Source: an uncultured Planctomycetia bacterium (GTDB taxonomy: Bacteria; Omnitrophota; Gorgyraeia; 2-02-FULL-51-18). Taken from it: DNA of 64,000 nt. The translations under genes and the position numbers were made by a program. Below the pieces are notes generated by a model. It did no database searches. It worked only from the letters and a program-made list of their open reading frames with translations, and was not told where the DNA came from. Of the stretch, positions 1-46,800 are shown in pieces. How positions within the stretch are numbered: position 1 is the stretch's first letter; every line of letters starts with the position of its first letter. The DNA is taken from assembly GCA_964606485.1 (NCBI GenBank), contig CAZSGP010000006.1, positions 62,925-126,924 of the forward strand. Reading direction: 5' to 3'.

Positions 1-945
1 GAGCATTTTTAAATGATGGGATTCAAGAGGCGGTAAAATCGTCTGCTTAGAAACCGTGATAAATTTCTTAAAAACATAAGGCCGCGGCTGTTTGCCGTCG
101 ACGTTCGCAAACTCAAGTTCAAACTCAAATCGGTCGCCAGATCTGCTATCTTTTCCAAGGGATCGGCTCAAATCCGTATAAATGCGTTTGAACCAGGGTC
201 GCATGGCCACGCCGCAGACAAGACTCGTCATCGCGAAAATTCCTAAAGCGAAAGGATTATTATTTTTACTGCCTAAAACCGTGCGTTCAAAATCACCGCC
301 GGCCACTCGACCCACACTGGTGGACACATCATAAATAATGAGCCCTAAAAGCAGTAGCGCTCCAGAAAAAATGAATCCATAATCAAAAAACCGCATGAAA
401 CGGTCGGGAACCAACGCTCGAAATACTTTTTGGCCGTCCAAGGGTCCCAGTGGGAGCATGTTGGCGAGACCAAAAACTAAATTAATGTGCGCCACTGTTT
501 GAAAAATCCAGTAACCGGTGGCTAAGTATAGGCCTGCGAAAACCCCGTAAAGAATTAAATTCATGATAGGCCCGGCCAGCGCGATTTTGGCCAAGGCTAT
601 TTTATTTTCACCGTTTCCGGGATTAAAAAGCTTATTTTGAAAAACTGCAAAAAATAAAGTCGCGGGAACCCCTAAAAGTCCTGTGATGACAAGCGTCAGG
701 GCCGAAGCGCCGCTCATGAAACGCCACGGCTTCCATGAAATCTGACCGGCCATCCATGCAGAAACATCTCCCGCCTTGAGCGCCGCATAAGCGTGAGCCA
801 CTTCGTGCAGTACGATTGATTCTATGACCAGCCAAAACATTAGGACACCTTCAAGAAACCGAAGCGTCTCCACTTCCGCGAGTCGCGCACCGGCCATCGA
901 AAATTTCAGCTTTGATGCGGCGGGTTCGTCCAACATGTAGATCAC
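1..945 (-). other. M50 (site-2 protease)-like polytopic membrane domain at C-terminal end of giant ORF, continuing beyond window
   Basis: HExxH in a hydrophobic helix (IVLHEVAHAYA, 793-825) and NMLPLGPLDGQKVF (436-477) match the M50 HExxH / NxxPxxxLDGG motif pair, with hydrophobic helices around them. Confidence 0.65.
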
Positions 946-3900
946 GCTGTCCATGCGCTGAAGCATCGACACCGGAACGGACTCCGTGACCGGGCCCTGT
1001 AAACCACGAGCCACAATCTCCGCTTTTTTTTCGCCGTTAGCCATGAAAAAAATATTTTTGAACTCTGCGATATCCGCCATACCCATTGTGATCGCACGAG
1101 GCGCTTTGCGGATTTCCGGATAATCTTTTTCATTCGCAGCGATCGTAGACTCATTTAAATCGACGATCTGCATGGACTGGTTAAACCCGGAAAACCGCGG
1201 CGGCTCATTGAAAGCCAAGTGACCGTCGAGACCGACTCCTAAAATTCCAATATCCGCGCCGCCATTGTCCTTTAAATTTTTCATGTAACGCTCCAAGTGG
1301 CCCGGCACATTCCATTGGGAGCCGTCGATATAATGAATATTCGCTTCCGGAATCTTTACTCTCGAAAATAAATGCTTTCTTAAAAATGCTGCGAAGGAAC
1401 TCGGGTGACTGGGTGAAAGGCCCGCGTACTCATCAAGATGATAGGCCTGAACACGCGACCAGTCGATGTCTTGGCTAAATCGAGCCATATAATCCAACAT
1501 TTGTACCATGGTATTTCCGGTGGCAAAAACGATGTTTACACTTTTTCCAGATTTCTGGAGAGATTCGATTTTAGTAATGATCGCAATCGCCGCGGAAGAG
1601 GCAAATTTATGATCTTCCTCAACACGGATTAATTGTTTTGTGCGGCTGAGCGCAAGCTGAGAATCACCCGCTGAATTTTGAATCAAAATCTTTATTCTTT
1701 CCGATAAGTAACGAAGATAGGCGAGAAACTCCTTTTCGTCCGAAGGCTCGGTTATTCCCGCATCCGAATGGATCTCATCGATAAAATTTTTAAGTTCCGG
1801 CTCGGCTCTAAAAAATCGGTCGTACTTTTCTTCTAACGTCTGCTTAAACTCGCGAAAATCTTCTCTCCTATTCGCAAGGTTGGAATGGATAATTGCTAAG
1901 AAGCCTTTTTGATGCTCCTCAAGAATTCTTAGGAACATCGCTTCGGAGTCACGCGAAAAACTACCGGTCACCTTAATTTGAATTTCGTCTCCAAAAGCCC
2001 CATTTCCAGGAACAAGCTGAAAGTCCACACGGTAAAAATGACCGGCCAGCGCCATCGTGCGCGACACACCTGACCGACTCAGGCCTCGTGCCAACGCGTC
2101 AGAAACTTCGCGCAAATGGCCCGCGCCCACCACTTGGTAGGAGTATTCTCTGATTTCCTCTTTACGGGTTTTAGCAAAAAAACGAACGCGGCCGTTTGAC
2201 GGCGTGTCCTGGTAAAACCCGATTGAAAACCAGCGATTCTTCTTCGCGAAGCCTGCTTCAAGACGATCTCGAAACTCGTTTTTTATTCTTAATTCATCTT
2301 CGGCTCTTTGCAGAGGAGACCGAACAGCCGGATGGCCGTCAGGTCCCAAGCCGAATTCCCATTCGGAGATAGGATTACTGATCAGATGAGAGGGTTTTTC
2401 AGTTAACCGCGCTCCATTTGATTTAAATTTTTTCTCCAAATGGATGTAAGCAAAAGTTGCAGCAACACCCGCGGTGATGAGTTGTCCTGCGTACATTGCG
2501 CTGTCAGCAGCACTCAGCACCACGGGATCTCCTAAATGAATCCAGGAGAAGGTTCCCCCATAATTCCACACGTCAACCGCCGCCAATACCGCCGCCCAAA
2601 CGTAGAACCAGATGGCAAGATCAAGCGCGCTTTTAAGTTTTAAATACCCTTTCTCTTCGAGAACTAAACGGAGATAACCTGTCCCAATCGCCCATGCCAT
2701 TAGAAAGGCCGCACCCAGAATCCAGAACGGATCACGCGCGGCGTACACAATAAACGGAGGCGGATTGTGCAGAAGCTCGTGAGGCGTGACAAAAACCAGT
2801 GTTTTTTGATTTTCTTTGGATAAATTTTCATAGTAGGCCAGTCCGCGATCCGAAAAAACCTTTGGCCATATATAAAAAAATGGGGTGCTTGAAAAATAGA
2901 GACGCTCCATATAAGTATTCATCGGTACGCTTACTAAAATTATCAAAATCCGGATCATTTGACCAAGCGTTAGGTCATCCTCCGAAGAACCCGGTCTCAC
3001 CTCGACCTCGGTTTCTTGGGATTTCTGAACAAGCCGCGCGCCACGAGTCTCTCCAAAATCAATGCGCTCCCGCATGCGGTAAATCGTGCGGATAAGCTCA
3101 ATTCCTTGAGGGGAACGAAGTGTGTTCCCGATTCTTCCGTTTTGGCAGAGCTTTTTAATCACATCTTCTTCGTCTTCGTGGTCATTGCCTCTCCATTCTG
3201 CGTTAAGCAATTCCATCTTCGCAAGAATGCCCCTTAATAAACGCAGATCTCTGTGATTATTCTCTTTGGAAGCCAAACGCAGTTCTTCGTTAACGGTTTC
3301 CTCGGCCAGCCTAAAAATAGCCGTCATAGGAATCTTATTCCTGAAGCTTTTTATCTTTGCTTTCAATTTTGCTTTAAAATTGCGTTCGAGCCGGTGAATA
3401 AAAGCCTCTCTGCGGATTTCGGCTTCCTGGCTCTTTTGCCACTTTTTATAAAGAATATTTGCAATGCTTGCGGCAACAGCAAGCACCGCCAGCGTGCCCA
3501 AGGTAATACCTGAAAGCCGCGCGGCGGCAGGCAAAACCTCAAGCGCTTTGTCTTTTCTAAAACAAGCCAGGTACCACTCTGCGTTGTAGTGGCGAACTTC
3601 AGTATATTTTTCACTTGAGAAAAACGAGCGCTCGATTAAAAATTCTTTATCGGGCCTAAGACCCGGCAGCTCTTCGAACATGCCCGTTAAAACAAGGAAG
3701 CAAATTAAAGATCCGTTTTTCATTTGTAATCTTTTTTCTAGAAATTTACTTCTAAAATGAACGGCCTCGTCCCCCTCGGGTTCGGTGTAATAATAAAAAA
3801 CGAGATCCGCATCGCTCCAGGAAATATTAAACGCGTCCGTTTCGGGATAAAACTTAAAGTCGGGCTGTGCAATTTTTTTGGCCCGAGCATTCTCGAGCAG

Positions 3901-6900
3901 AGCTTCCGATTTTTTGGAGAGCATCTTAGAAATTTCAATAGAAGAGACCTTCATTCCAAAAACGTATTCTGCAAATATTCCTACCCGGAGATCTCCGGCG
4001 CCAAAATCAAGCAAGCGTTTATCTTTTAAGCACCCGTACCTCTTTTCAATTGCAAGAAACGACCGGTAAATATGCTCAAAATTTGCCATATCAAATAACG
4101 CCCCGCCCGAACCAAAGGGGCGATACTGATTTTGATATTCCTTATAAAATTTAATGACATCCTGTGCGCGCTTTGCTCGTTCCGTATCCGTATCGCTGAC
4201 ATTTAAAGAAAGCCTCGCCCCACCGGTTTCGGATTGAACTTTTTGAACGTACACGAGAAGCCTGCGGGCAATTCCGCTGGCTTCGGGGAATCCCATACGG
4301 ATAAAATGTTCCAGAAGCTGGATTAAATTATTTTCGGGAGTGCTTTGAGCACCCTTCACCCAAGTTTGAATCGCTATCACGGCTCGCCGAACTATGCCGG
4401 GATCAATCACTTCCTTAGCCAAGGAAACCCATACCTCCTTCACTTGATCGTCAAATAAATTGGGCTTTATAAGCAGTGCTTTTTGAAGTTCAGAGATAGC
4501 AGCGTCTCTTTCAGCGTCCGTTCCGAAAATGGCAGCCCTTAACAAGTTTGAGAAATTTATTTTATGGGCATCGGGCGCAGGCCCTTCCGCTTTAAGATTT
4601 TCAGCTATTTTCCAAATGCGCGCCCGCACAACCGTTTCGACCGGTTCATCAAAAATACGGTCACCCTCAACGCGGACTATTTTTCCTTCTCTGCAAAGTT
4701 TTTGACGGTTTACTTCCATGGCAACATTGAACTGATGCCACATATGGTCCCAAACCGCGCCGGCTTCTACGGAGGGATTCTGCCACCAGCGCTCATTTTC
4801 AGGAGTCTCAATGTTGTCCCACCACCAGGCCAGATCCTTGGCGGACTGCTCTAAACGAGCTTCGATATTTTGGCTAGGCCTGAAAACAGCCACGTCCATG
4901 GGAAGAAGCGATTGGTTCCGGTATTCATCGCGTTTAATTTCATTGTTTGCGACAGCTGCCAACGCAACCAGTTTTTCACCCACTTCAAGATTGACGCCGA
5001 AATGAAGGTTTTCAACTTTAGAAATCCGGTAACCCCCGGCAAAAAAATTGGAGGCGCGCGCCAAGATACGAAGCCCGATCATTTGCCGTGCCCAATTTTC
5101 ATCCATAACGCCGTTGAGTATTTTTTGAGCGTCTAACGACTCTTGACTAAAATTCCATCGCATCCGTTTTGTAATAGGTCCGCGGTCGATCGGTTCCAAA
5201 GCGGACGGCATCTGCCCCATCAAATGGGTGTCGCGCTTAAACAGCGAATCTAAATTCTTCTTTGAGGGCGACTCGTCGAATTTCTCATCCACTCGCGAGG
5301 GTTTCGCCGATAAAATCATTCGTGCGAGTGGCTCTTTCGCGTCGTTGATCAAGTCTATTCGCAAAAAGACGGTTCCGTCGGGCTGGGTTTTAACTAACTT
5401 CGTCCGGATTTTTAACGGCTGCAAATACAAGACCAGTCTGCTTCTATTTCCGTGAGGACGATTGGCTCGGAAATACAAAACTCGATCCGGATTAAAACCC
5501 GTCATCACGCGCTTCGCCTGGTTCACTAGCCGACTTAAGATCAGAAAATCATAAACGCGTTCTCCGGAAAGAAAATACCAGTAATAACCCTCATCAGATA
5601 GCCGTTGCGGCTCGCCTGACAACGAGAATAAATCCAGCATCCATTTCTCAAAACGGATCAGCTGTTCATCTAGCATCACACCACCGGAAAGCCGCGCGCC
5701 CCTCACAAAATCCACCACCACCTGATTCCATTCATCAAGATACTGAGGCAAATGCGAACGCAGCAGCGAGTGCTCCTGGCTTCCTTCGTCAATAATTTCA
5801 AGGGGGGTAGACATTGCCCGTGCATCTTCCCGCAGATTGTGAATGTCCACGAGCCGGTCGTGAGTGCTTGTCACGATGAGTTTTTTTGTGCCGTTTTTTC
5901 GCCGGACCGCGTTTGCCTTTTCGTGCATGTCAGACGGATAAGTCAAAATCGCGTGCAACTCTTCGAGCACATCGCGCGTCGACATGTTTTCGTAGTCCTG
6001 GCTAATCGCGTAGTGCAGCTCTTCCGGCACGCCGAGTTCCTTGAGCATTTTGAAAAAATATTTGCCTTGAGTAAAAGAACCCCAAAAGGGCGCTACAAAG
6101 AACGTCGCTGCAGCCGGCGCGTAAGACGCAAGCTGGGAAAACAGTCCCGAATACCTCTCAAGCGCTTTTTCTCTTAGCGCCACAACAGGCCAGGGTAAAC
6201 GTTCGGACACCGGCCACTTTAAAACAGTTAGCATCGGCTCAAGAATTTTTCGGACAGGCCCAAAATACGCTGACGCAGATTTCAGAAAATCTAAAATATT
6301 CCGGATCGCGTGATCCCTGTGTTTAAACGAAAAGGGATTGGAGCCGATCTCGACGGAAATTTTATCAATGACGTCCTGGTAGATTTCAGGCTGGCTAAAC
6401 AACGTGTCAATCAGCACATTTGCGTCCGAATGCCCCACCAGCACAATTGGCCGGTTGGGGTATTCTTTGGAAACCCATCGAATCGTGTGCGCAACGTTTC
6501 CAACGTAGTAATTCAAAATCTGTTCGGAACCCATTTTGCGAATGGCTAACGGCACGCGTCCCCGGTGGGGGGCCGCCACCGTCCAATCATCGGGAAAATT
6601 GGCTAATTGATTTTCCCAGGTGCCTCTGCCCACAAATCCGTGCACGAGCACGGCAAGTGGTGCTTGATTGGATGGCCCCTGACGTAAATCCACTTTAAAA
6701 CGGGTTTCAATGACTTGTCCCGCATGATCCTGAAACGGCCTTCCGTCCGATCCTGCCAGCGTCCGGGTTAATTCTACCTGCGGCCAGCGAAGTGCTTCTT
6801 TATCGACAAAAAAATCAACACGGGTTGGCTCGGGGTGTTTCCATAAAAGCCGCGCAGGCGCTTGAGTGAGCCAGTACTGCTTACGCTCAGGCTCCGAGCG

Positions 6901-9900
6901 TAAATCTTTGAGCACCCGATAAAGAGGCTTTCGCTTATGCCGGCCCGACATCATCACCATCGCGTGTTTCGAGTCAAAAAAAGCTTCCGGCGTCAGCGAC
7001 ATGAGATTTCCAGTCACCGCATACCCGGGGTCATACCGCTTTTTCAACAGCTCGCTTCCGGGGAAAATCGCGCCCATATTGGCTTGGCTACCGATACCCC
7101 AAATCGTGAGATCAAACCGGTTGCCGTTTTCGGCTAGCACTTCACGGCGTTTTATTTCGTAAGAAGCGACAAGCTCCTTAAATTTTTGAGCGTCCACGTC
7201 CACCCAATTCCCATCGTAAAAGCTAAAAAATTTCGGCTGGTCGATCGCGCGGTCTTTGCCCTTAATGCTTAAAAAATTAAAACAGGACCGGACCATCGCC
7301 TCATTGGCACCCGGCTCATCCGCCCCGGGTCCGCGCTCTTCCCCTAGGAAAAATACGATTCTCTGCATTTCTCCGGGCTTAAATCGAGTGTAGTATTCTT
7401 TTTTGGTGAGGAGCTTGTAAAATTTCACCGGGGTATCGCCTCCGGCAAGCGCTACAAAAAACTTGGCGTCTTTTTTGCTTCTTAGCTTTTGAATGGCAAG
7501 CTCTATAAACCGGTCCGCCGCTTTTTTACTCAATTCCTCATCGTTGAGAGCGGACGTGTCCACCCGGAACCGAGGTGTCGCGGCAATTCCTTCGCGCTGT
7601 CTTAGAAACTGATTAAATTCCTCTTCCCGCAGGGCGCGCGTCCGCGCAGGCGTCCACTCGCCGGCATCAAATCGCTCAAAAATTAAATCCGGACTGGCCT
7701 TCGTTCCGTATTCCACAATGCGGTCAAACTCGCTCCATTGATTTTTTGGGTGCAGGCGTTTTGGGTAGCCAAGCGCAAATCCCACAAACCGCTCGAGCTC
7801 CGCGTCGTCAAAGAAACCGTTTAAGTCCGGCGGATAAACCGGCTCTGCGATCAAACTCCATTTTTCATTTTTAATTTGCTCTTCAAATACTTTGAGCGCT
7901 GTCAAAAATGCCCGCCGGTTATGGGGCGGCGTGGTGACAAGTGAAACGGCCGTGTGATCAAGCTTGTAATCCGATACCGCCTGGGCAATGAGATGACGGC
8001 TCATCTTCAAATTTTCAACCGTGTTGGGCGTTGGCGTGGTGTCGCGGTAAATAACGGGCTTTCCTTGAAATTCGGTGGGCATATTAAAAGTATGCGTCAG
8101 AATAAATTCGATCAACTCCGACTCGGTCGACTGTTCATTTTTTAAGAGCCGCTTAAAAATAACGCGGTCGCGGCTTTTAAAAGAATAGGCATAATTTCTT
8201 AGCATTAAATCTTTCAAGTCCTGTGTCGCCCGGCCAATGCCGCCTGTGATCACTATCGGAATCACGTCCCCCGCTTCGAATCGCTTATTCCACATTTGGG
8301 CGAATGCTTCAAACGCTTTGAGATCTTGGTGTCCGAGCAGCGCGTAAACCGTGGGCTTGCCGCTAAAACCCGCTGTCTGCTCTGTTTTAGACAGTTCGTC
8401 AATTAGCGGCTGGATGGCTCCAATCATCCGGTTCCGGGAATCAGAGAGCACATTGGCCGCGAGGCGCGCGCCGCTTTGAATCGGATTGGGAGAGCCACGA
8501 TTAAACCTTAACTGTTGGAAATGAATATAATCCCGTGTCGTTTCTACATCCTGAGTCTTGAGCAGAACTTTTAATACCCGCGTAAACATTCCATGTCCAT
8601 AAACAAAAACGGTTTTGCCCGGATAGCGCTGGTTTATTTCGTCGATAAATTTCCGCACTCTCACCATAAACTCAGGAAAACTTTCGCCGTTTCGCGGCGC
8701 AATGAGGGCGCTGTTATTTTTATACGCCTGCGCCATTTTTTGCTGTGCGGGATCAAGCTCATCTATTTTTTTGCCGCCCCAGTCGCCGAAATTAATTTCT
8801 TTAGCGCGCATCTCCAATTCCACATCGATCGCCCGCTTCAAGCCGAGGTGATAAAGACGCGGGATTTGAAATGAAGCCGTTTCTCTTGCCCGGAAAAGCG
8901 GGCTCGTCAAAAACACATATCCTTTTCCCGGATCCCCATCACTCAGGAGACGCTGGTATTCTTGCCACAACTCCTGAGCTCCACGCCAGGCCTGGGATTT
9001 ACCTTTGTCGTCTAAACGAGCAAGCGGACCCTCGTTCTGACCCTGGAACACCTCCATAGAATTTCCGTAAGTATTGCCGTGCGGAATCATCACAAGATCA
9101 CATTTCAAAACCGGAGGCTCGTAGCCGGCTTTGTATCGGATATGACCCTCTTGATCAATGACTTCAAAACCAAGATCTGAAAGCATTTTTTTGCCTCTCA
9201 ATCGGCTTCTTAAGTCGTCATAAAATAAATATTTAAAAATTAAATTTGCCCAGGCGGCAAGACGCGCACCTGCTTGTTGGGACAATTTCTCGACATCTTT
9301 TTTTAGTTCCTTAATTTCCCTTTCAAAGTCCAGCATAAGGATGTTAAAAAGATCCAAATTTTTTCGGCTAATCGCCTGAGCGACGTGATTCACTAGCGCT
9401 GCCGACTTGGACTTTAATGTATTGATCAGATCAGCGCGTGTTTTACGATTAAGCGATGGATCTGAGAGTTTAATTCTGGCATGCGTCGCAAAGTCGGTTT
9501 GCGCATCAATTAAGCGATTATAAAGAGGCTGAAAATAAACCTGAGCCTCTATGGTTTCATTGAGTGCTCGCTCGCGGGCCAATTCGAAGAGCATTGGAAT
9601 AACTTTGTCTTTCGAATCAAACTCGCTCCCCTCAATCGTCGACAGGTATTGCTGAAGCTCTCCAGGAACACGCTCAGTCAGAAAGACGTTTCCCTTTATA
9701 TGATCCGCGAAATGAAAAACGCCGGGTTTACCGCGGCGCCCGGCACGCCCTTCGAGATGCAGCGCTGTGAGCAGTGACTTGCTGTAATGGGTGCTCAAAA
9801 CCACTAAGCCCGCAACCGATATTTTTTTCCCGCGGAATTCCGCTTCCACGGGCTTGTAAAGTTTAGGGTCCAATTTAATTTCGGCGCCGCGGCTAGCCAC

Positions 9901-12900
9901 CTGAGCTGTAATCGTGATGCTGAAAGAATCTCCGATTCTATTCCAATTAAGCGCATCGCTCACTTCATCACGTCCATTAATAACCCGAATCGGTTGGAGC
10001 GGCTGCGTGCCGCCCTTCAAAAAGGGTTGCCGCTCATTCTCGGCCTCGAGCGCATCGCGGTACATTTCGGCTTCTTCCGGCGAACGGGTATTGAGCAAAA
10101 TAGGACGACCGGTCTCATAAAACACGCGGATTGCATCCACAAAATGTGCGATCTTTTCTTTTTCGTTTAAAAAATATTCCTCCGGAATGACCGTTCGATT
10201 GTTGGGGTACTTGGGCTTAACTTGCCGAACCGTCGCGCCATAAAGCGCTTCTAAAGCCGCCGCGCGCTTGGAATCTAAAACTCCTATGACTGCGCTGAAC
10301 TCAAGTGTGTTCCTGTAAAAATAATGCGGCGTTAAGAGCTCGCGCGCGACCGCTTCCCCCATAACCTTCTTTCCTTCTTTAATTTCTAAAAAGGGTTGAA
10401 AAAAGCGGATAACACGGTGCTCCTGCCGATCGCCAGTAGATTCGTTTCTGAGCGTAATTTTTTGATCCCATTTACTCGAATGCTTGGCCCGGCTTGTCGA
10501 AAAATATTGTTCACCTTCCTTGTAAAATAATCGCGCTTGTATAGCAATGTCTAAAAGCTCGCGCGGAAACTCGGGGTCTGAATAAAACTTCTGCAAAACG
10601 TCTCTTTTGGACAACTCAGCCAGCTGAGCGCGCCTAGTTTCATCGAGCTCAATGTCAAGTTTTCTCCGAAATTGGCCCTCCTCTTCCACCCAAATGACTT
10701 TTACCTTTCCCTCATCTAAAAGCCGAGTCGCCAATTCATTTACAGCGATATAGATGCCTTTTAAGTCCTCATCCATCTCTTCCGTGGGGTCCGCAAAAAC
10801 GCGAGGCTCATACGCTTCGTCCCAGAGAGGTTCTTCTGCCTCATCTAAAAACACCCACTTTTTTTTGTCAGAACTTTGACTCTTTCCAAAATATTTTAGA
10901 GAGAATCTGTCGATCATATGCCTAAACATAAATTGATCGTAGGTCCCGTGAATAAAATCGGCCTTTCGAGCTAGTTCGGCGCCATTCGTCTCCGTTAAGG
11001 AGGCCGTTTTAAAACCTAGACGATTTAAGATGGCCTCGGCAACCGCTGAATTTCTGGATGCCAGCGGGATATTAAAATCATGTATTTCAACTCGGTAACC
11101 AAAAAGCATTTTTAAATACGCCGCTAGAACCAGCGAAAGTGACTTTCCTTCGGACATTCGCATGGTCACGAGCGCTCGATTCTCTAAGAGAAGTAAAGCC
11201 GCTTCAATTTGTTTCTCGTTAGGAAGACTATTCGGATCGGTGTTTTGATCTCCGATAAACGTCCGTATGGAATCATAATCCAAGCTCTTATCACTCGCCG
11301 TCTTCGCTGCGGCAATTGAAAAAATGGCAATAGCCCAACCTATAAACTCCGGATTTGTTTTTAATGTGGGGTCTGCTTTAAATTTTTCCTGAACCAATGG
11401 ATAAAGTGCTTCGATGGATTCTGGGCCCATATGAGTAAGAGTTTGAATAAATTTTGTTTTATACCTACAAACATCTTCTATGAATTTTTTTTCTTTGCGC
11501 GACCGCAGAGCCGCCTGAGTCTTCCTTAAGAAGCCTTCCGCATCCGATAAGGAATCAATCTCATAAAGCTTTAATTTTTTGTATAAAGTCCTTTGGTCTA
11601 TTCCAAGCCGAATGGCAGCAGCTCCTCTGAAGTCGCCTGTTGAGTATAAAGCCCCGATAATCACCATTTTTTCAAGCTCACGCCACTGCAACACTTCTTG
11701 CTTCGCCATCCACAAATAAGCCGATGAATAATTGACTTCAATTCGCTCACGGGCCGACGCCTGGGAATCCACGCCTTCGACTCGAATCTCGTTGGACACT
11801 CTCTGGGAATCCAACCCCGTACTCAGGGCGGTTCCGCGTATAGATCCGCAATTAGCGTACGCGTTCAAAATAAGCATTTGTTTAACGCGCCTTAAGTTGA
11901 AATCAATATTTTCTGGAAAATTTTCAAGCGGAGCTTCTGGCTTCTCATCAGGAATGATGGACCTTAGATTTTTTAAATCCAGCTTTCCTTTTTCAAAATC
12001 AATTTTATTTTGGAGTGTCTTTAAAAAATCGGAATGCTGTGCGTTCTTCGTTGCCAAAGCTGTCAGGGAATCCATAGTAGGAGCTTGGGCGTCGGTAACC
12101 GCAACTATTTCAATCGTTCCCATTTTTTCTTCAGCTGCGGCAAGTCGCGCGCCGTCAGATCTTATAATCGCAATATTGTGCAAAATTTCCCGAGCGCGTT
12201 TTCTAATTTTTTGAGTATAAATCGTGTCATCTGTTAACCCGCTGATGTCTTGACGAACGGCTTCGGTCAGCTCGTCCATCTGATCTTTTGAAAACAACAA
12301 AGGGTTTGTTAAAAGCATCTGATAGGCCGCTTCCGTCAAATTCCACCGACGGCTCGTATCTCCCATGCTCATCCCTTCGGCCAGATAACGCGATGCCAAG
12401 ACCGCATTGAATATTGAAGTTAATTCTTTTTCCGCCCACTTTTTTTGTGACAAGGGAATAATAATATCGTTGATAAATTTATCCATTTGAAATCCGGATT
12501 GGGATAAATCCCCTTCAGCGTAAGAGCGCTGAATGTTTCTCTTCGTTTTAATATGCCCAAAAGCCACAAAGAGTTTCCCCACTAGATAAAAATTAGTCGG
12601 ATCCGAAAAATCGGTTTCTTTGATGAGAAGTGACGCCACATTCAGCATGGCATACGATGCGCTGAGTGCCAGCGACTCTCTTTTCAGAGGTTCCTCATGA
12701 AGACCCGACCAGTGAATAAAAAACTGATTCCAAATCTCCCTCTTCTGGCTTGTGCTGGCATTTTCCAGCAAGTCATGAAGCGCATCAAAAAAATCAATTC
12801 GAACCTTCTGAATATCGCTGTCGGAGTTATCGTATTTTTTTAAATAGTCGTTCAAAATAATATCGATTTTGGTCGACGCATCGGTTTTCAATCCAACGGT

Positions 12901-14892
12901 TTTTTTATATTTTTCAAACGGGGACTCTCCGAAGCCCCAAGACTTCTTAAGCATTCTTGCCGCATCCTGGGGAGCGACGCCCCCGCAAGCGGCTAACAAC
13001 AGGGATAGTGCTAAAGCGGAGACACGGTTTATATAGACAGGGAGTCGCGCGCCTTCGCTCGGCGACCGGCTCCGGTCCTTGCGCTTCATATGCTCGATAT
13101 CCTTGAGAATGTTTTGAATCGTGGTTTTTACCGGTGAAGCGTAAAGGCCAAAAAACACCACCATCCCCAGAAGCTGACAAAGAGATTGCTCGGCGCGCTC
13201 CAAAACTTTCTCATCCGCCGCCAGTCCGAGTTTCGAGTTTTCACAGACTTTCACGATATCGGGATCAGACTGTACGATCTTGAGAATATATTCGGTCCGC
13301 TCTTTTTGAATAGCTCTCCATTCCTCTCTGTAGGCTCTCATTTTGCTTCGAACCCAATCCATCCAACCGAGCCTCGCGCCGCGCGACGCCTTCGTATTGT
13401 CGGTAACGACAGAGAAGATAACTTTCAACTCACTTTCCAAAGATTCTTTAACACTCAACCGGCCGCCCTGCGCCGGATACAACACCAAATTTGCTGCCGG
13501 CTGCACATTCCACAAAGCGCTCGGCGCCTGGATTTTTAAAGCATCGAAACGGGCAATGATTGGAGCAGCATTTTTAGGCGGAAGTTGAGATAGGAGTAAA
13601 TTTTCATACTTACGGACATTGGTTTCCGCAAGCACGCGCGGTTGGATAATCTCGCAATCGACCTCTTTGTCCGCAAAAAGCCGTTTCAAATGCTCCGAGT
13701 GAAAACCACCGGCGACGAGAATCGCTTTCGTTTCATTTTCAGATTTCATTTTTGAAAGCGTATTTTTTACAAACACGTGGTCGCGTTTTAAGGTGAGCGC
13801 ATAAAATGTTTTGGCCTTTTTAACGAATTTTTCGTAGCGAGGCTCAAGGTACACAGCGTTCTCAAAACCCTTGTGAAGACCAGAAATCATGCCGTTCAAA
13901 TCGCCGGATATTTTTTTCATCGAAAATTGCTTGGGGTTTTCTCGGATAGCCTTATAGTCGCCTGGCTCTAAATTGAGACGGGTTAGTTTTTGGAGTGTGT
14001 GGAGAGTTTCTCCGATCTCAGACAACCGTCTTTCGTCTGACGTCTGGACAATATTTTCAAAAATCCGATCTTCAAGCAGTGATTTTTCGCGAAGCAGCTC
14101 ATCCAAATCGAGTTTCCGCACGCGTTTAAGGTAATTTTTAGACGCCGTATTATTTTTCTTTAAAACTTTTTCAAGATGCGTCAGCCTGGAAAGCACTTGG
14201 ATTTGTGACAAATCTCCAAATGAAATACCTAGAGACTTCGCCTCCCGAACAAGATACGAAAAATAGTCAGCTGAAAGCATTTGTCCGGAATCAAATTGCG
14301 TTTTATTCGTATCGAATCGAAGCAGTCTTTCATTAAAAATCTTGGCCTTAAGGAAGCTGGCCGTTCGCTCCACCCGCTCTAGATACGCTTCGACGAAATC
14401 GCGCTCTAGTTTTAAATCACGATAAAGTCCGAGCCCTTCGAAATAAAGCGCTTTATCCTCCACTCCCCAAAGCTTGAAAGGCTTGTCCGAAATAAGGTCC
14501 AAGTAGTCCGGCCCTTGAATGGTCCCTTTCTGTAAAAAACTGTCCGCAATCTGCTTCGCTTTTCGACGATCGCCGATCGCTTTTGGTCTCAGATAAGACA
14601 GTGAGTCATCACCGGTTCCCGCTTCTAAAAATACAATCTTAATTTTTTCTTGAGTGATAAGCTCATCAATGGTTTTGGCGATATTTTTCTGCGCGGAAAG
14701 ATTCAAGTGCGCGTCTTGAATGATGTAGATTTTTTTAGTGAAGGGTTGCTTCGCTTGGTGAAAAAAAGAAAGCGGCTCACTACCGGCGGCAAATGCAAGA
14801 TCTTGCGCCAAAAAAGAAATAACGAGTGCAAATGATAGGCACTTTAAAAAGCTTGGGGTTCTGCTTTTTAAAAGATTAAATTTATAAAACAA
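1..14892 (-). CDS. Giant multidomain protein, at least 4,960 aa, 3' end beyond window start. Probable TTG start near 14892 followed by a signal peptide (FYKFNLLKSRTPSFLKCLSFALVISFLAQDLAFA). Domain modules are listed as separate features.
   Basis: Reverse-strand frame (codon first bases at coordinates divisible by 3) is open from the stop at 14947-14949 down to coordinate 1. This was checked codon by codon at 1-960, 5690-5710, 9250-9285, 9710-9755, 13030-13060 and 14830-14950. The ORF track shows only short antisense ORFs in this 14.9 kb, consistent with one ORF lacking an in-window stop. Multiple specific family motifs are present in frame. Confidence 0.8.
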   Translation of the reverse strand, partial: MFYKFNLLKSRTPSFLKCLSFALVISFLAQDLAFAAGSEPLSFFHQAKQPFTKKIYIIQDAHLNLSAQKNIAKTIDELITQEKIKIVFLEAGTGDDSLSYLRPKAIGDRRKAKQIADSFLQKGTIQGPDYLDLISDKPFKLWGVEDKALYFEGLGLYRDLKLERDFVEAYLERVERTASFLKAKIFNERLLRFDTNKTQFDSGQMLSADYFSYLVREAKSLGISFGDLSQIQVLSRLTHLEKVLKKNNTASKNYLKRVRKLDLDELLREKSLLEDRIFENIVQTSDERRLSEIGETLHTLQKLTRLNLEPGDYKAIRENPKQFSMKKISGDLNGMISGLHKGFENAVYLEPRYEKFVKKAKTFYALTLKRDHVFVKNTLSKMKSENETKAILVAGGFHSEHLKRLFADKEVDCEIIQPRVLAETNVRKYENLLLSQLPPKNAAPIIARFDALKIQAPSALWNVQPAANLVLYPAQGGRLSVKESLESELKVIFSVVTDNTKASRGARLGWMDWVRSKMRAYREEWRAIQKERTEYILKIVQSDPDIVKVCENSKLGLAADEKVLERAEQSLCQLLGMVVFFGLYASPVKTTIQNILKDIEHMKRKDRSRSPSEGARLPVYINRVSALALSLLLAACGGVAPQDAARMLKKSWGFGESPFEKYKKTVGLKTDASTKIDIILNDYLKKYDNSDSDIQKVRIDFFDALHDLLENASTSQKREIWNQFFIHWSGLHEEPLKRESLALSASYAMLNVASLLIKETDFSDPTNFYLVGKLFVAFGHIKTKRNIQRSYAEGDLSQSGFQMDKFINDIIIPLSQKKWAEKELTSIFNAVLASRYLAEGMSMGDTSRRWNLTEAAYQMLLTNPLLFSKDQMDELTEAVRQDISGLTDDTIYTQKIRKRAREILHNIAIIRSDGARLAAAEEKMGTIEIVAVTDAQAPTMDSLTALATKNAQHSDFLKTLQNKIDFEKGKLDLKNLRSIIPDEKPEAPLENFPENIDFNLRRVKQMLILNAYANCGSIRGTALSTGLDSQRVSNEIRVEGVDSQASARERIEVNYSSAYLWMAKQEVLQWRELEKMVIIGALYSTGDFRGAAAIRLGIDQRTLYKKLKLYEIDSLSDAEGFLRKTQAALRSRKEKKFIEDVCRYKTKFIQTLTHMGPESIEALYPLVQEKFKADPTLKTNPEFIGWAIAIFSIAAAKTASDKSLDYDSIRTFIGDQNTDPNSLPNEKQIEAALLLLENRALVTMRMSEGKSLSLVLAAYLKMLFGYRVEIHDFNIPLASRNSAVAEAILNRLGFKTASLTETNGAELARKADFIHGTYDQFMFRHMIDRFSLKYFGKSQSSDKKKWVFLDEAEEPLWDEAYEPRVFADPTEEMDEDLKGIYIAVNELATRLLDEGKVKVIWVEEEGQFRRKLDIELDETRRAQLAELSKRDVLQKFYSDPEFPRELLDIAIQARLFYKEGEQYFSTSRAKHSSKWDQKITLRNESTGDRQEHRVIRFFQPFLEIKEGKKVMGEAVARELLTPHYFYRNTLEFSAVIGVLDSKRAAALEALYGATVRQVKPKYPNNRTVIPEEYFLNEKEKIAHFVDAIRVFYETGRPILLNTRSPEEAEMYRDALEAENERQPFLKGGTQPLQPIRVINGRDEVSDALNWNRIGDSFSITITAQVASRGAEIKLDPKLYKPVEAEFRGKKISVAGLVVLSTHYSKSLLTALHLEGRAGRRGKPGVFHFADHIKGNVFLTERVPGELQQYLSTIEGSEFDSKDKVIPMLFELARERALNETIEAQVYFQPLYNRLIDAQTDFATHARIKLSDPSLNRKTRADLINTLKSKSAALVNHVAQAISRKNLDLFNILMLDFEREIKELKKDVEKLSQQAGARLAAWANLIFKYLFYDDLRSRLRGKKMLSDLGFEVIDQEGHIRYKAGYEPPVLKCDLVMIPHGNTYGNSMEVFQGQNEGPLARLDDKGKSQAWRGAQELWQEYQRLLSDGDPGKGYVFLTSPLFRARETASFQIPRLYHLGLKRAIDVELEMRAKEINFGDWGGKKIDELDPAQQKMAQAYKNNSALIAPRNGESFPEFMVRVRKFIDEINQRYPGKTVFVYGHGMFTRVLKVLLKTQDVETTRDYIHFQQLRFNRGSPNPIQSGARLAANVLSDSRNRMIGAIQPLIDELSKTEQTAGFSGKPTVYALLGHQDLKAFEAFAQMWNKRFEAGDVIPIVITGGIGRATQDLKDLMLRNYAYSFKSRDRVIFKRLLKNEQSTESELIEFILTHTFNMPTEFQGKPVIYRDTTPTPNTVENLKMSRHLIAQAVSDYKLDHTAVSLVTTPPHNRRAFLTALKVFEEQIKNEKWSLIAEPVYPPDLNGFFDDAELERFVGFALGYPKRLHPKNQWSEFDRIVEYGTKASPDLIFERFDAGEWTPARTRALREEEFNQFLRQREGIAATPRFRVDTSALNDEELSKKAADRFIELAIQKLRSKKDAKFFVALAGGDTPVKFYKLLTKKEYYTRFKPGEMQRIVFFLGEERGPGADEPGANEAMVRSCFNFLSIKGKDRAIDQPKFFSFYDGNWVDVDAQKFKELVASYEIKRREVLAENGNRFDLTIWGIGSQANMGAIFPGSELLKKRYDPGYAVTGNLMSLTPEAFFDSKHAMVMMSGRHKRKPLYRVLKDLRSEPERKQYWLTQAPARLLWKHPEPTRVDFFVDKEALRWPQVELTRTLAGSDGRPFQDHAGQVIETRFKVDLRQGPSNQAPLAVLVHGFVGRGTWENQLANFPDDWTVAAPHRGRVPLAIRKMGSEQILNYYVGNVAHTIRWVSKEYPNRPIVLVGHSDANVLIDTLFSQPEIYQDVIDKISVEIGSNPFSFKHRDHAIRNILDFLKSASAYFGPVRKILEPMLTVLKWPVSERLPWPVVALREKALERYSGLFSQLASYAPAAATFFVAPFWGSFTQGKYFFKMLKELGVPEELHYAISQDYENMSTRDVLEELHAILTYPSDMHEKANAVRRKNGTKKLIVTSTHDRLVDIHNLREDARAMSTPLEIIDEGSQEHSLLRSHLPQYLDEWNQVVVDFVRGARLSGGVMLDEQLIRFEKWMLDLFSLSGEPQRLSDEGYYWYFLSGERVYDFLILSRLVNQAKRVMTGFNPDRVLYFRANRPHGNRSRLVLYLQPLKIRTKLVKTQPDGTVFLRIDLINDAKEPLARMILSAKPSRVDEKFDESPSKKNLDSLFKRDTHLMGQMPSALEPIDRGPITKRMRWNFSQESLDAQKILNGVMDENWARQMIGLRILARASNFFAGGYRISKVENLHFGVNLEVGEKLVALAAVANNEIKRDEYRNQSLLPMDVAVFRPSQNIEARLEQSAKDLAWWWDNIETPENERWWQNPSVEAGAVWDHMWHQFNVAMEVNRQKLCREGKIVRVEGDRIFDEPVETVVRARIWKIAENLKAEGPAPDAHKINFSNLLRAAIFGTDAERDAAISELQKALLIKPNLFDDQVKEVWVSLAKEVIDPGIVRRAVIAIQTWVKGAQSTPENNLIQLLEHFIRMGFPEASGIARRLLVYVQKVQSETGGARLSLNVSDTDTERAKRAQDVIKFYKEYQNQYRPFGSGGALFDMANFEHIYRSFLAIEKRYGCLKDKRLLDFGAGDLRVGIFAEYVFGMKVSSIEISKMLSKKSEALLENARAKKIAQPDFKFYPETDAFNISWSDADLVFYYYTEPEGDEAVHFRSKFLEKRLQMKNGSLICFLVLTGMFEELPGLRPDKEFLIERSFFSSEKYTEVRHYNAEWYLACFRKDKALEVLPAAARLSGITLGTLAVLAVAASIANILYKKWQKSQEAEIRREAFIHRLERNFKAKLKAKIKSFRNKIPMTAIFRLAEETVNEELRLASKENNHRDLRLLRGILAKMELLNAEWRGNDHEDEEDVIKKLCQNGRIGNTLRSPQGIELIRTIYRMRERIDFGETRGARLVQKSQETEVEVRPGSSEDDLTLGQMIRILIILVSVPMNTYMERLYFSSTPFFYIWPKVFSDRGLAYYENLSKENQKTLVFVTPHELLHNPPPFIVYAARDPFWILGAAFLMAWAIGTGYLRLVLEEKGYLKLKSALDLAIWFYVWAAVLAAVDVWNYGGTFSWIHLGDPVVLSAADSAMYAGQLITAGVAATFAYIHLEKKFKSNGARLTEKPSHLISNPISEWEFGLGPDGHPAVRSPLQRAEDELRIKNEFRDRLEAGFAKKNRWFSIGFYQDTPSNGRVRFFAKTRKEEIREYSYQVVGAGHLREVSDALARGLSRSGVSRTMALAGHFYRVDFQLVPGNGAFGDEIQIKVTGSFSRDSEAMFLRILEEHQKGFLAIIHSNLANRREDFREFKQTLEEKYDRFFRAEPELKNFIDEIHSDAGITEPSDEKEFLAYLRYLSERIKILIQNSAGDSQLALSRTKQLIRVEEDHKFASSAAIAIITKIESLQKSGKSVNIVFATGNTMVQMLDYMARFSQDIDWSRVQAYHLDEYAGLSPSHPSSFAAFLRKHLFSRVKIPEANIHYIDGSQWNVPGHLERYMKNLKDNGGADIGILGVGLDGHLAFNEPPRFSGFNQSMQIVDLNESTIAANEKDYPEIRKAPRAITMGMADIAEFKNIFFMANGEKKAEIVARGLQGPVTESVPVSMLQRMDSVIYMLDEPAASKLKFSMAGARLAEVETLRFLEGVLMFWLVIESIVLHEVAHAYAALKAGDVSAWMAGQISWKPWRFMSGASALTLVITGLLGVPATLFFAVFQNKLFNPGNGENKIALAKIALAGPIMNLILYGVFAGLYLATGYWIFQTVAHINLVFGLANMLPLGPLDGQKVFRALVPDRFMRFFDYGFIFSGALLLLGLIIYDVSTSVGRVAGGDFERTVLGSKNNNPFALGIFAMTSLVCGVAMRPWFKRIYTDLSRSLGKDSRSGDRFEFELEFANVDGKQPRPYVFKKFITVSKQTILPPLESHHLKML
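950..1720 (-). other. Glucosamine-6-phosphate deaminase/isomerase (NagB)-like domain
   Basis: IVFATGNTMVQML ... HLDEYAGL ... GADIGILGVGLDGHLAFNEPP (verified at 1201-1260) ... APRAITMGM ... DEPAASKL. This is a close match to NagB family motifs (GsTp, DEY, GiGenGHiaFNEP, AiTmG, D.aAa.L). Confidence 0.7.
1750..2350 (-). other. Second TraB/GumN-type GxxH region (YQVVGAGHLREVSDALARGL)
   Basis: VVGAGHL matches the TraB/GumN C-terminal signature. Confidence 0.35.
3700..4100 (-). other. Class I SAM-dependent methyltransferase-like domain
   Basis: Motif I KRLLDFGAGDLRVGIFAEY, followed by acidic and hydrophobic motifs typical of the Rossmann MTase fold. Confidence 0.4.
6150..6660 (-). other. alpha/beta-hydrolase-like domain
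   Basis: VLVHGFVGRGTWENQ (HG oxyanion motif) and IVLVGHSDANV (nucleophile-elbow-like GHSxA) within about 80 residues. Confidence 0.4.
6950..7500 (-). other. 6-phosphogluconolactonase/NagB-fold domain (first copy)
   Basis: FFVALAGGDTPVKFYKLL and FFLGEERGPGADEPGANEAMVR resemble Pgl/DevB motifs (alSGGsTP ... gDER..p.d..SN). Confidence 0.5.
8570..9100 (-). other. Histidine-phosphatase (phosphoglycerate-mutase) fold-like domain with variant first motif (IPHGNTYGN instead of RHG)
   Basis: LVMIPHGNTYGNS ... GESFPEFMVRV ... TVFVYGHGMFTRVL pattern matches the RHGx..N / GES / HGG layout of the family, but the catalytic Arg position is Pro. Confidence 0.35.
9650..11250 (-). other. SecA-like DEAD-box motor domain embedded in giant ORF
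   Basis: In-frame motifs: VTMRMSEGKSLSLVLAAYLKMLFGYRVEIHDFNIPLASRNSA (compare SecA [37 protein letters not shown]); KADFIHGTYDQFMFRHMIDRF (SecA DITYGTNNEFGFDYLRDNM); ASRGAEIKL (SecA AGRGTDIxL); LHLEGRAGRRGKPGVFHF (SecA motif VI LRGRSGRQGDPGSSRFY), verified at 9711-9753. Confidence 0.6.
13500..14800 (-). other. TraB/GumN/TIKI-like N-terminal domain shared with the two other giant ORFs (motifs IYIIQDAH and ILVAGGFHSEHLKRLF)
   Basis: Alignable by eye with the N-termini of the 44746..50247 ORF (VWLIEDIH; VLVVGGFHTAGLVNDL) and the 58437..64000 ORF (FIVGGYHAPSLQKLF). The [IV]VG[GA]xH..L pattern resembles the C-terminal GxxH motif of the TraB/GumN family. Confidence 0.45.
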
Positions 14893-15073
14893 AATAAATT
14901 TCACCCAATATTTTAAATTAATCTGAACATAAAATTTAACAACGGGTTAAAGTAAAAAGTGCTCGGAAAAGTATGCCTAATCTGCTCAGTAAAATCAAAT
15001 TCGGTTAAAAAAAATTTTTAATCAGAAGTAAGTGAATTTAAGCACAAGTGACTCATTCAAAAAAAATATTGGC

Positions 15074-17445: not shown

Positions 17446-17475
17446 TGAACCTTCCTTTGTACAAGTTTGGTTATT

Positions 17476-44745: not shown

Positions 44746-46800
44746 TCAAGCGCTAGCCGCTAACTGCTGATAAGCAAGAATGGACTGCCAGTACCCAAAA
44801 GCGCTCCTCAGATATTTTTTTAGATCATAATATCCATTCAACATTTCTTTCGGAGGGTTGCTTCCAAATACAAGCTTCAACACTTCCAGGCGATCCTCGG
44901 GCGTGCGAACTTGGCTCATCCAAAACTGAAAACCAGCCTCAAGACGCAGGGCTACTTTTTCTGCAGGCAGTGTTTTCACGCGGCTGTCCATCCCGGCGGC
45001 AATACAAAATGTGTTGTCGCCGAGTTTCTCAAGAATATCTATCGTGTCCCGATAGGGGCTCGCGGACTCGATGAGCTGGCCTTGAAACTTTGGCAGGGCC
45101 TCCAGAGAACTCTTGAGCGCTTCTTTTTGGGAATTCGGTCCCGGATCCAATAAAATAAGCCAATAAGCGCTTGGCATCCCAGAAACAAGCCGGGTAAGTT
45201 CGCGCGTTTCAAGAAGAGAGGCGTCTACGATGTTGACGCGACGCTGACCCGCTGCTTCAATCGGCAGCGGCACAAAAACCGGCCAATTGGAGAGGTTTTT
45301 CTCCAAATCCAAAATTTTCAACAATCTTGTGAGCCGCGCGCCCTTACTATCTTTATCGGTTTTCATTGCCCCGCGCGGTTTTGTTTCCCACGGGTAAGGA
45401 TTGGCGCCGAGTCGGTTTAACGTTTGTGCGGTCTTAAAAATTTTAAGTTTGGCATCTTCAATCCGCATCAATAATTCGCCGATTTTTTGCTCATTTTCCA
45501 TCTGTGATTCTAAGCTTTCATTGGGACTGCGCCAAACTCCCCCTGGAAATATCTTTTGAAATTGCTCCAAGCTCTGATCCAGACGCTCCAACTCCTTTAC
45601 CAAAAGATGCATCGATATAAAAGCTTGGTTGTAAGCCGCGGCAAACTCACTGCGCGCTATTTGAACGCGAAGCTCGGCCTCCTTGACATTGGCTTGGGCC
45701 AAAGCCAAATCCGCCTCAAGTGGCGCGCCAAACGGAACCTTCAGCTGAAACGTTTGTTCACGACTCACAGCGCCATAAGATTCGAGCGGCCGGCCGGCGA
45801 GCTCGTGAAAAAATGGCCCCGGCATGTCACTGGGTCTAGGATTGGTTCCCCAAAAAGCGCCTATATTGAGAGACGCTCTTTGAGTGCGCTCGGCAAACGA
45901 GTAAGCGTGTTGCGCGGCCTCATAATCCCTTTCGGCTGCTAAGATCGCGGGGTTTGCCGCGGCGGCTTCTTGAAACGCAATATTACCGCGCCTCAAGATC
46001 GCCACCGCATTGTTAAAGCTGGTTTCAAAATCCAAAGAAACACTTATCTCCTTTCCTTGATCCAGCGGTGAACCGGAAAGCAGCATGAGTATTTTAGACT
46101 CTAGTTCATTGGCTTCTATATGAAGTTGTAAGATGTCGGCCTGCAACGCGGGGATTTCTCTTTGCGCTTTTTGCCTCGCTTTCTGGTTTGCCGGAACAGC
46201 AAGTTGAGTCAGCCGTTTTAAGGAAACCTGCCGCCCTTCCAAAATCTTTATTTTTTGACGTGTCAAATTAAGTTCAATCAAAAGATCGGCCGCTTGGTTT
46301 TTTTGAGCTAAAACGGTTTCCTGTAAACGGTGAAAACTCGCCAAAACCAATTGGCTCTGAATAAGGCGCGCTTCTTCGTCGGCACCCAGCAGTTTTCGTA
46401 AAAGCGCTCCCGCAAAATCGGCAGCTAAGGACAAACCGTTACTCCCGTAGATCGCCGACAAATTAATAGCCCCACTTGGGGTCATATAGGATACCGCCGA
46501 ACTAACAACCGGTTTATTGCCCTCGAACCCCCCGGTTATTTCGATAGCCCATCCGGGCTCCAGTCTTCCCTGCGCGGCTTCCTGTCGCCAAACATCAAGT
46601 CCCGAAAGTTTGACGTTTAAATTTTTTTCAATGAACGGCCAAAGATCATCGACACTCAAAAGAATCTTTCCGGGTTTGAACTGCTCTGGTATTTGCCGCG
46701 CTGGCTTAGGCGAAATAGGCTCCCAAGGCGCGCTTGCGCAGGACGGAATTATTACAACCGTGGCAAGACTCAGCAGCGACGCCAGTGCAAATGGTTTGCG
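44746..46800 (-). other. NodT/TolC-like outer membrane factor module preceded by its own lipoprotein-type signal peptide (AHRKPFALASLLSLATVVIIPSC) inside the 1,833-aa ORF
   Basis: The positively charged n-region + hydrophobic core + Cys follow immediately after GDGARL (verified DNA at 46795-46830). Downstream coiled-coil repeats (LAQKNQAADLLIELNLTRQKI..., EAELRVQIARSEFAAAYNQAF...) are typical of OMF proteins, and NodT-family OMFs are N-terminally lipidated. Confidence 0.5.

Follow-up and report, generated by a model that had tools for sequence, protein, structure and literature searches.

The DNA analysed here is a stretch of 64,000 nucleotides from an uncultured bacterium (contig CAZSGP010000006.1 of assembly GCA_964606485.1, positions 62,925 to 126,924), which we refer to as the window and number from its first letter. 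Its beginning is occupied by a giant open reading frame (ORF) on the minus strand. The stop-free frame spans window positions 1-14946, the called start is a GTG at 14904, and the part within the window comprises the first 4,968 codons of a protein, P0001, with a full length of 5,725 amino acids (aa), of which the last 742 fall outside the window, past its start. A preliminary description of the sequence had recognised in the region 950-9100 a glucosamine-6-phosphate deaminase (NagB) domain, a domain resembling 6-phosphogluconolactonase and a histidine-phosphatase domain, and had stated that this combination in one protein is not a known architecture. All three domains are indeed part of one polypeptide, encoded by the single minus-strand ORF, and the plus strand of the region contains only short ORFs in the bacterial code. 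The three assignments are borne out by significant matches in Pfam, NCBIfam and the PDB, so that the outcome named in that description as refuting them, an absence of such matches, did not occur, and the peptide strings quoted in that description were all found where it had placed them. The Pfam scan covered 4,982 aa of P0001 plus the C-terminal 1,054 aa. The following features were located along the ORF, listed from the N-terminus of the protein.

1-14904, minus strand: giant ORF
14794..14850, minus strand: N-terminal hydrophobic helix FLKCLSFALVISFLAQDLA, signal anchor or signal peptide (hydropathy scan; conserved in relatives)
13585..14742, minus strand: N-terminal domain (N-domain) of about 400 aa, TIKI/erythromycin-esterase-like fold
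12976..13041, minus strand: lipoprotein-signal-like internal segment PVYINRVSALALSLLLAAC followed by GG, directly after motif site 2 (read from the sequence)
11566..11682, minus strand: Fis-type HTH_8 domain (Pfam E 9.6e-7 when scanned alone)
9841..11226, minus strand: divergent SecA-like ATPase (Pfam SecA_DEAD and P-loop_SecA, E 1.4e-14 and 1.1e-9)
8524..9093, minus strand: histidine-phosphatase (branch 1) domain with PHG for RHG (Pfam; PhoE and PspA alignments)
7888..8163, minus strand: DUF218-like domain, a weak match (Pfam E 4.4e-4, under the gathering score)
6892..7533, minus strand: 6-phosphogluconolactonase-like domain of the NagB/Pgl fold (PDB 6PGL matches; second PF01182 stretch)
5701..6759, minus strand: alpha/beta-hydrolase-like domain with a GHSDA elbow at 6415-6441 (Pfam Abhydrolase_1 E 6.8e-4, sub-cut-off)
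901..1632, minus strand: NagB-like glucosamine-6-phosphate deaminase domain (Pfam, PDB, catalytic alignment)
337..849, minus strand: site-2-protease-like M50 membrane metalloprotease module (31.7 bits in a separate Pfam scan, cut-off 27.2)

P0001 also holds a methyltransferase-like stretch and several transmembrane segments. The M50 module carries HEVAH at 793-807 and NMLPLGPLDG at 433-462 as well as transmembrane candidates in the hydropathy scan. The NCBIfam SecA models score far under their cut-offs for the SecA-like ATPase.

A product of this size, derived from a metagenome and without annotation or name in the databases, raises the question of an artefact, be it a mis-assembly, a fusion by sequencing error or a non-standard genetic code. 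We regard such an artefact as extremely improbable. The identical 5,725-aa product, present in a public protein collection, is encoded both by a 164-kb NCBI contig and by a Logan assembly made independently, 14.9 kb are free of all three stop codons, the neighbouring genes are normal in size and have normal ends, and thousands of relatives show the same layout.

A search with the whole of P0001 returned 119 relatives of 2.7-7.9 kaa, and those with a name are mostly from Omnitrophota; RlmN, encoded by a neighbouring gene on the same contig, shares 65-73% identity with proteins that carry the name Candidatus Omnitrophota or Omnitrophica. Among the members listed, known family proteins range from about 500 to 7,900 aa. 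Each relative overlaps with P0001 over only 3-13% of the query, and the Pfam mix differs from relative to relative, including glycolytic and pentose-phosphate enzymes, methyltransferases, kinases, HEAT and TPR repeats and M48, M50 and CPBP proteases. It is very probable that P0001 is a modular membrane-associated protein of an Omnitrophota bacterium, in which the three domains pointed out in the preliminary description are independent cargo modules. The alternative, namely a purpose-built three-domain sugar-phosphate enzyme in which the PHG domain has been repurposed for binding, could draw on the fact that the substrates of all three folds are phosphorylated sugars or acids, and on the recurrence of PHG in the distant relative P0050, which argues that it is not a random lesion. 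We consider this alternative very improbable, because the three domains are 2,000-2,600 residues apart, in three different motif-delimited modules (see below) with unrelated ones between them (SecA-like ATPase, methyltransferase-like, transmembrane and M50), and because among the relatives they occur singly and in other company. The combination thus did not hold up as a functional unit, and it would be wrong to take this odd set of domains for a new multi-domain enzyme.

Two further features had escaped the preliminary description, a recurring GARL motif and the conserved N-domain. P0001 contains 12 GARL and 3 AARL tetrapeptides where 0.22 are expected. Eleven sites were located as follows.

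13366..13380, minus strand: site 1, GARLG (aa 509), first after the N-domain
13039..13053, minus strand: site 2, GARLP (aa 618)
12139..12153, minus strand: site 3, GARLA (aa 918)
9256..9270, minus strand: site 4, GARLA (aa 1879), start of the histidine-phosphatase module
8458..8472, minus strand: site 5, GARLA (aa 2145), end of the histidine-phosphatase module
5686..5700, minus strand: site 6, GARLS (aa 3069)
4207..4221, minus strand: site 7, GARLS (aa 3562)
3511..3525, minus strand: site 8, AARLS (aa 3794), with a transmembrane helix immediately after it
3028..3042, minus strand: site 9, GARLV (aa 3955); the module after it is hydrophobic and probably membrane-embedded, with one transmembrane candidate in the hydropathy scan
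2401..2415, minus strand: site 10, GARLT (aa 4164), opening the module that ends with NagB
877..891, minus strand: site 11, GARLA (aa 4672), a few residues past the NagB-like alignment, with the M50 module directly after the site

The motif is not a peculiarity of this protein. A logo derived from 716 sites in 55 of 120 relatives reads [A/S]-G-A-R-[L/M]-A with unconserved flanks; the fifth position of the motif is Ala in 73% of the sites, although it was outside the search pattern. In 121 further family representatives, we counted 1.84 sites per 1,000 aa compared to 0.11 expected, a 17-fold excess of the pentamer. Within the window, the three ORFs of the family (8,656 aa) contain 17 pentamers, versus none in 38 ordinary ORFs (11,747 aa). 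The window family sites use GGC, GGT, GGG and GGA for Gly, GCG and GCA for Ala, every one of the six Arg codons and five of those for Leu, and this free variation of codons places the constraint at the level of the peptide.

The sites are positioned at the borders of modules. Only 35 of them fall inside conserved cargo alignments, compared to 90 +/- 9 at random positions, and 48% of the alignment-block ends lie at most 30 aa from a site, compared to 18% at random. The median distance between sites is 266 aa. Within five residues on either side, Pro, Gly, Ser, Thr, Asn and Gln are enriched and hydrophobic residues depleted. The first site is found 80-120 aa past the GG[FY]H of the N-domain in 70 of 116 relatives and never within the N-domain. 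Hydrophobic helices follow sites in 5.2% of the cases versus 2.3% at random, and precede them in 2.0% versus 2.6%. The segment PVYINRVSALALSLLLAAC behind site 2 has a charged start, a hydrophobic core and a lipobox-like LAAC (LLLAAC followed by GG); we take it for a putative lipobox, and such an internal lipoprotein-like signal makes obvious sense only if a new N-terminus is created there. A lipobox after sites was rejected as a general rule, as only three cases were found.

In other lineages, the place of the motif is taken by variants, namely GSRLA, GTRL, GAR[M/A]A, AARLA, RSELR, G[A/S]SLG and AGFGA, each with 8-11 copies that start right after the N-domain, and the flavour of the motif is uniform among the paralogues of one metagenome-assembled genome (MAG). 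The variants take equivalent positions around related cargo: in P0050, RSELR aligns with the GARLA that closes the phosphatase module of P0001 (site 5), the NagB modules of three other proteins are preceded by GSRLA, AARLA and RSELR, and in P0003 the lactonase-like and hydrolase-like pair has GARLA 29 aa ahead of the aligned domains and GARAA 21 aa behind them.

The N-domain is the only region common to all relatives, corresponding to roughly residues 30-470 of P0001 when the relatives are mapped onto the query, and in every relative it is N-terminal and downstream of a hydrophobic helix. Its key residues are D64-A-H66 (14701-14724), E94 (14605-14634), R374-D (13771-13794) and GG-x-H402 (13687-13719), and an alignment of 20 members has D64, A65, H66, Q72, E94, E273, R374, G399, G400 and H402 invariant. 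No Pfam or NCBIfam model matched this domain over threshold; PF04187 ('Tiki superfamily, ChaN') came up sub-threshold in 6 of the 20 members with a best E of 0.0025, and a sequence-profile search of the PDB gave no match, so that the identification of the fold required a structure model. This model matched the erythromycin-esterase-like structures 2rad and 2qgm, EreC, HopBA1, ChaN, a TraB-family protein and the MARTX effector RRSP, and Foldseek concurred (EreC, prob 0.98). The TIKI family is characterised by a set of two His and two Glu, in which a His and a Glu are 28 residues apart in Bcr135 (H85/E113) and RRSP (H3902/E3930) (PMC6254334). The spacing between H66 and E94 of the N-domain is likewise 28 residues, the acid-x-His comes before E94, and the Gly-Gly-x-His follows a late strand. 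The fold matches, this spacing and the two His motifs suggest that the N-domain is probably a hydrolase of the TIKI/Ere superfamily with an intact active site. With the TIKI/TraB/ChaN/Ere superfamily it shares the fold, the acid-x-His after strand 1, the Glu 28 residues on and the late Gly-x-x-His; it differs in a helical insertion of about 240 aa and in its first acid, which is Asp and not Glu.

A hidden Markov model (HMM) of the N-domain, searched against 1.84 billion representatives, matched 10,233 clusters (at 50% identity) at E<=1e-3 and 7,122 at E<=1e-30, and thus defines a very large family outside Pfam. In the 150 best matches listed, which are proteins of about 500 to 7,500 aa, the domain sits at the N-terminus or close to it; several copies per MAG are common. 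In the scan of a genome collection, relatives were found with the trimmed alignment A2, whereas a single N-domain query found none. One large subclade with the signature IHIQDAHCN (P0044, P0055, P0059, P0065, P0079 and others) has the catalytic residues and no recurrent tetrapeptide; its motif is either too degenerate to detect, or these proteins work without one.

Protease sites that co-evolve with their enzyme are known from viral polyproteins and MARTX toxins. In the present family, a short bounded linker peptide, selection at the peptide level, replacement of the motif between lineages and N-terminal-type signals after sites all favour processing, which is our preferred reading, and we regard it as an even call whether the pentapeptide is a protease recognition and cleavage site and the ORF, by analogy, a polyprotein. 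According to this proposal, a dedicated protease would recognise the pentapeptide and cut it in the linkers, the ORF would be processed into about a dozen products, and some of these would carry a membrane anchor or a lipoprotein-type signal of their own at the start. The three domains would then end up in three products: the phosphatase module (aa 1879-2144), a module of the DUF218-like, lactonase-like and hydrolase-like domains (aa 2145-3068), and an unknown domain together with NagB (aa 4164-4671). The pattern of L, M or F followed by a small residue, common to several variants, hints at a cut after the hydrophobic residue. As for the enzyme, the N-domain is a doubtful candidate for the processing protease; it comes into question since it is the sole family-wide component and its superfamily includes endopeptidases. 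Signal-peptidase I sites (AxA) and C39 double-glycine sites were rejected, because the logo has no upstream hydrophobic pattern and no C39 domain was seen among the relatives.

The same recurrence, linker location and lineage specificity would fit with a protein that stays uncleaved, that is, a membrane-tethered 'beads on a string' scaffold in which GARLA serves as a hinge, as a docking or assembly motif, or as a signal for the SecA-like ATPase or another partner. The literature treats such giants as membrane-anchored multi-domain proteins, and in an AF2 model that covers the phosphatase module and the site on either side of it, a helix begins at one site, albeit with low confidence. Structural linkers, however, rarely need five fixed residues between unconserved flanks, wholesale swaps between lineages (RSELR, GASLG, AGFGA) with uniformity within a genome are rare for linkers, and the anchors and lipoprotein-like signals at the beginning of modules better suit newly made N-termini. 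On balance, we consider a scaffold of this kind rather unlikely, yet worth keeping in mind.

Several observations weigh against cleavage at the motif. The cleavage itself, like the scissile bond, the protease and the cellular localisation, is something that we infer, from the observed domains, residues, motif statistics, placement and lineage variation, and the motif is tied to no protease. The M50 module was rejected as a general processing protease since only few members carry it, and the fold class of the N-domain also takes in esterases and proteins that are not enzymes. Of the N-domain relatives that are more distant, about 40% retain the catalytic residues and are without a recurrent tetrapeptide, which weakens a strict link between N-domain and motif. 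Some inter-site segments contain two or three domains, so the sites do not separate every domain, and the AF2 model mentioned above is weak (pLDDT 65), such that disorder at the sites is not demonstrable from it. Finally, the codons of the sites are not free of bias: the motif Ala is encoded by GCR (GCG or GCA) at all 21 window sites against a background of 55%, and in 133 sites of 20 other genes (loci L002-L040), CGG makes up 49% (background 23%) and 79% have CTG, TTG or ATG at the L/M position. Some nucleotide-level effect thus exists, and a local effect at the level of RNA or DNA could underlie it.

These biases (GCR in the window, CGG and NTG elsewhere), together with the mosaic of cargo reshuffled among relatives, are what one might expect if the roughly 15 nucleotides of the motif were a microhomology or recombination site for the shuffling of cassettes and the peptide a by-product. 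We judge such a DNA-level junction to be quite improbable, as AGR and CGN as well as TTR and CTN all occur at the sites without any fixed nucleotide string, the amino acids are far better conserved than the DNA, and no DNA repeat family is needed to account for them. Internal translation starts, in the sense of a GGAG-like Shine-Dalgarno (SD) string followed by NTG, were rejected for this genome, where the sites read GGC/GGT GCG CGN CTT/CTC and no SD-like string is present; the Leu codons here are mostly not NTG, and the NTG excess belongs to other genomes.

Returning to the proposed processing, we would tentatively, and somewhat short of even confidence, extend it to the family: GARLA and its variants may form the code of a chromosomal polyprotein system present in thousands of Omnitrophota genes, with the TIKI-fold hydrolase possibly as the protease. 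If true, the polyprotein reading would amount to a mode of expressing sets of genes not known in bacteria, and the motif would be the missing cleavage map for the giant proteins of Omnitrophota. The motif at the module borders predicts where neo-termini would lie and which residues to mutate, and allows giants to be split informatically into units for structure prediction.

The resemblance to known polyproteins is partial. In viral polyproteins processed by the picornavirus and coronavirus 3C/3CL proteases, a long ORF carries short degenerate peptides at its borders, with unconserved flanks and sites that covary with the lineage, and the same is seen here. In contrast to these, P0001 is encoded by a chromosomal gene among housekeeping genes, and no chymotrypsin-like or papain-like protease was detected. 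The RTX or glycine-rich repeats and the C80 cysteine protease of MARTX toxins are absent from P0001 according to Pfam; furthermore, the cargo of the P0001 family consists of housekeeping-type enzymes and regulators and not of known toxins, and the conserved part is N-terminal only.

Giant proteins of Omnitrophota with a 'multi-enzyme metabolic' content, a divergent SecA_DEAD domain, transmembrane helices and mostly unique architectures have been described in two preprints (bioRxiv 10.1101/2023.11.21.568195; bioRxiv 10.64898/2026.06.07.730766), under the names 'Archaeovorins' (West-Roberts et al. 2023) and 'multi-enzyme metabolic clusters' (Nielsen & Lui 2026). The claim that the architecture of P0001 is not a known one did not stand in view of these reports, and the combination of the three domains is one draw from a known combinatorial class, as judged from the preprints and from the mixes of the relatives. 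P0001 has in common with the described giants the phylum, the many unrelated enzyme domains, a SecA_DEAD without SecA scaffold and wing, the transmembrane helices and the near-unique mix. It differs in size class, with 5,725 aa against the >30 kaa or at least 10 kaa of the surveyed giants, and neither a C39 or S8 peptidase nor dockerin or TSP3 repeats turned up in it. In both preprints, the N-terminal region is unannotated and cleavage points are unknown, and the authors of the main survey reported that missing cleavage points blocked their analysis; the points at which such giants are cut are likewise stated to be unknown elsewhere (PMC11573180), and whether giant bacterial proteins act whole or in pieces has been stated to be an open question. 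Neither preprint mentions a GARLA-type motif or a TIKI-like N-domain, and full-text searches of the literature gave no relevant match, so that the assignment of the N-domain and the punctuation motif appear to be undescribed in the literature searched.

With regard to the individual cargo domains, the fold and most motifs of stand-alone NagB, 6-phosphogluconolactonase and PhoE/CobC/PspA are found in P0001; what sets the copies apart is that they are embedded in a giant ORF, that the lactonase-like domain is without the catalytic His, and that the phosphatase is without the first Arg.

The NagB-like domain has its full set of catalytic residues. Pfam Glucosamine_iso (PF01182) matches P0001 with an E of 1.1e-47 in two stretches, NagB structures in the PDB match with E between 6e-32 and 1e-24 (2ri0 with 6e-32), and the NCBIfam NagB and Pgl models match as well. 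The motifs are LDEY (1417-1440), DGHLAFNEP (1198-1239, GVGLDGHLAFNEPP) and AITMGM (1078-1095). In an alignment with what we take to be the sequence of Escherichia coli NagB, whose residue numbering is consistent, Asp72, Asp141, His143 and Glu148 correspond to D4491, D4560, H4562 and E4567 of P0001. The domain scores 173.1 bits with the equivalog TIGR00502, under the cut-off of 236.9, which makes it a divergent member whose exact substrate is not assured. Deaminase/isomerase activity is plausible from these residues, and the released NagB product would be expected to be an active glucosamine-6-phosphate deaminase.

The resemblance of the middle domain to 6-phosphogluconolactonase held for the fold (PDB chains of this enzyme match with E between 8e-7 and 1.6e-4) and for the retained GG-x-TP and GEER (ALAGGDTP at 7429-7452 and FFLGEERGPGADEPGANE at 7300-7353). 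It did not extend to the active site, a point unnoticed in the preliminary description: the GxGxDGH of solved enzymes (GLGSDGH, GMGPDGH) aligns to GIGSQAN in WGIGSQANMGAIFPG at 7057-7101, and the catalytic His is replaced by Asn. This replacement is the reason why we do not file the domain as a lactonase; it is probably not one, and its product would not act as such. In the homologue of P0003, the only clear relative of this domain, an Arg (DGR) stands at the position of the catalytic His. The lactonase-like and the hydrolase-like domain form a conserved adjacent pair, seen again in P0003 and L010, and stretches homologous to the DUF218-like region were found in P0037, P0053 and P0056.

The histidine-phosphatase domain is matched by His_Phos_1 (PF00300) with an E of 6.9e-23 and 81.8 bits, compared to a gathering score of 21.7. 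Its motifs are IPHGNTYGN (9061-9087), the R of SPLFRA (8875-8904), the E of EINFGDW (8773-8799) and GHG (8584-8604). The replacement of RHG by PHG, reported in the preliminary description, is confirmed by the alignment to PhoE: the nucleophile His is present and the adjacent Arg absent. Besides this His, the domain retains the equivalents of PhoE Arg59, Glu83 and His151 in alignments to the PDB structures of PhoE and PspA. P0050 has PHG as well, P0058 has RHG, and L005 has PYG with further losses; this subfamily is evidently moving away from the canonical chemistry. A homologue search with the 266-aa phosphatase module alone gave no match, not even to its parent P0001, and such negatives obtained with fragments are unreliable; our view of the spread of PHG is therefore based on three relatives only. 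As judged by the residues retained, a weak phosphatase, a respecified enzyme and a binding module are all possible, and the product released from the ORF would be a weakened or respecified phosphatase.

Besides the giant ORF, the window contains two paralogues of the family.

44746..50247, minus strand: paralogue 2, 1,833 aa, with N-domain, HEAT repeats, an OEP-like (outer-membrane-efflux-like) region and 3 GARL (A1 profile E 2e-47; Pfam)
58437..64000, minus strand: paralogue 3, >1,853 aa with the N-terminus past the window end, with HTH_3, a receiver domain, 3 GARL and 3 AARL (A1 profile; Pfam)

The first 81 aa of paralogue 3 match positions 410-492 of the A1 profile, which correspond to the end of the N-domain. 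A gene for a stand-alone canonical histidine phosphatase of 208 aa (VRHAES; 57255-57881, minus strand; Pfam E 3.5e-57) adjoins this paralogue, and another gene of the histidine-phosphatase fold, coding for 165 aa (25834-26331, minus strand), covers the first half of the profile only. The minus strand at 32222-37615 codes for a protein of 1,797 aa with an N-terminal two-partner-secretion domain and a C-terminal beta-propeller (lactonase/YncE-like); having neither N-domain nor GARL, it represents a different kind of large protein.

The remainder of the window is ordinary bacterial chromosome, with PanE, QueC, a Pst-PhoU-PhoR/B cluster, Ppx, RlmN, MTHFR, ferritin, zinc and ABC transporters and Lgt-Psd. 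Scans of the window for tRNAs and Rfam families returned nothing. A 421-aa ORF at 39929-41194 on the minus strand has no Pfam match. The phosphate-regulon block at 16783-25810 on the minus strand comprises PhoU, two PstB-like ATPases, PstA/C, PstS, a PAS histidine kinase, an OmpR-type regulator, two adjacent overlapping thymidylate-kinase-like genes and Ppx/GppA. At 29518-30654 on the plus strand, a single ORF combines a prolipoprotein diacylglyceryl transferase (Lgt) with a phosphatidylserine decarboxylase, an unusual fusion of membrane-lipid enzymes.

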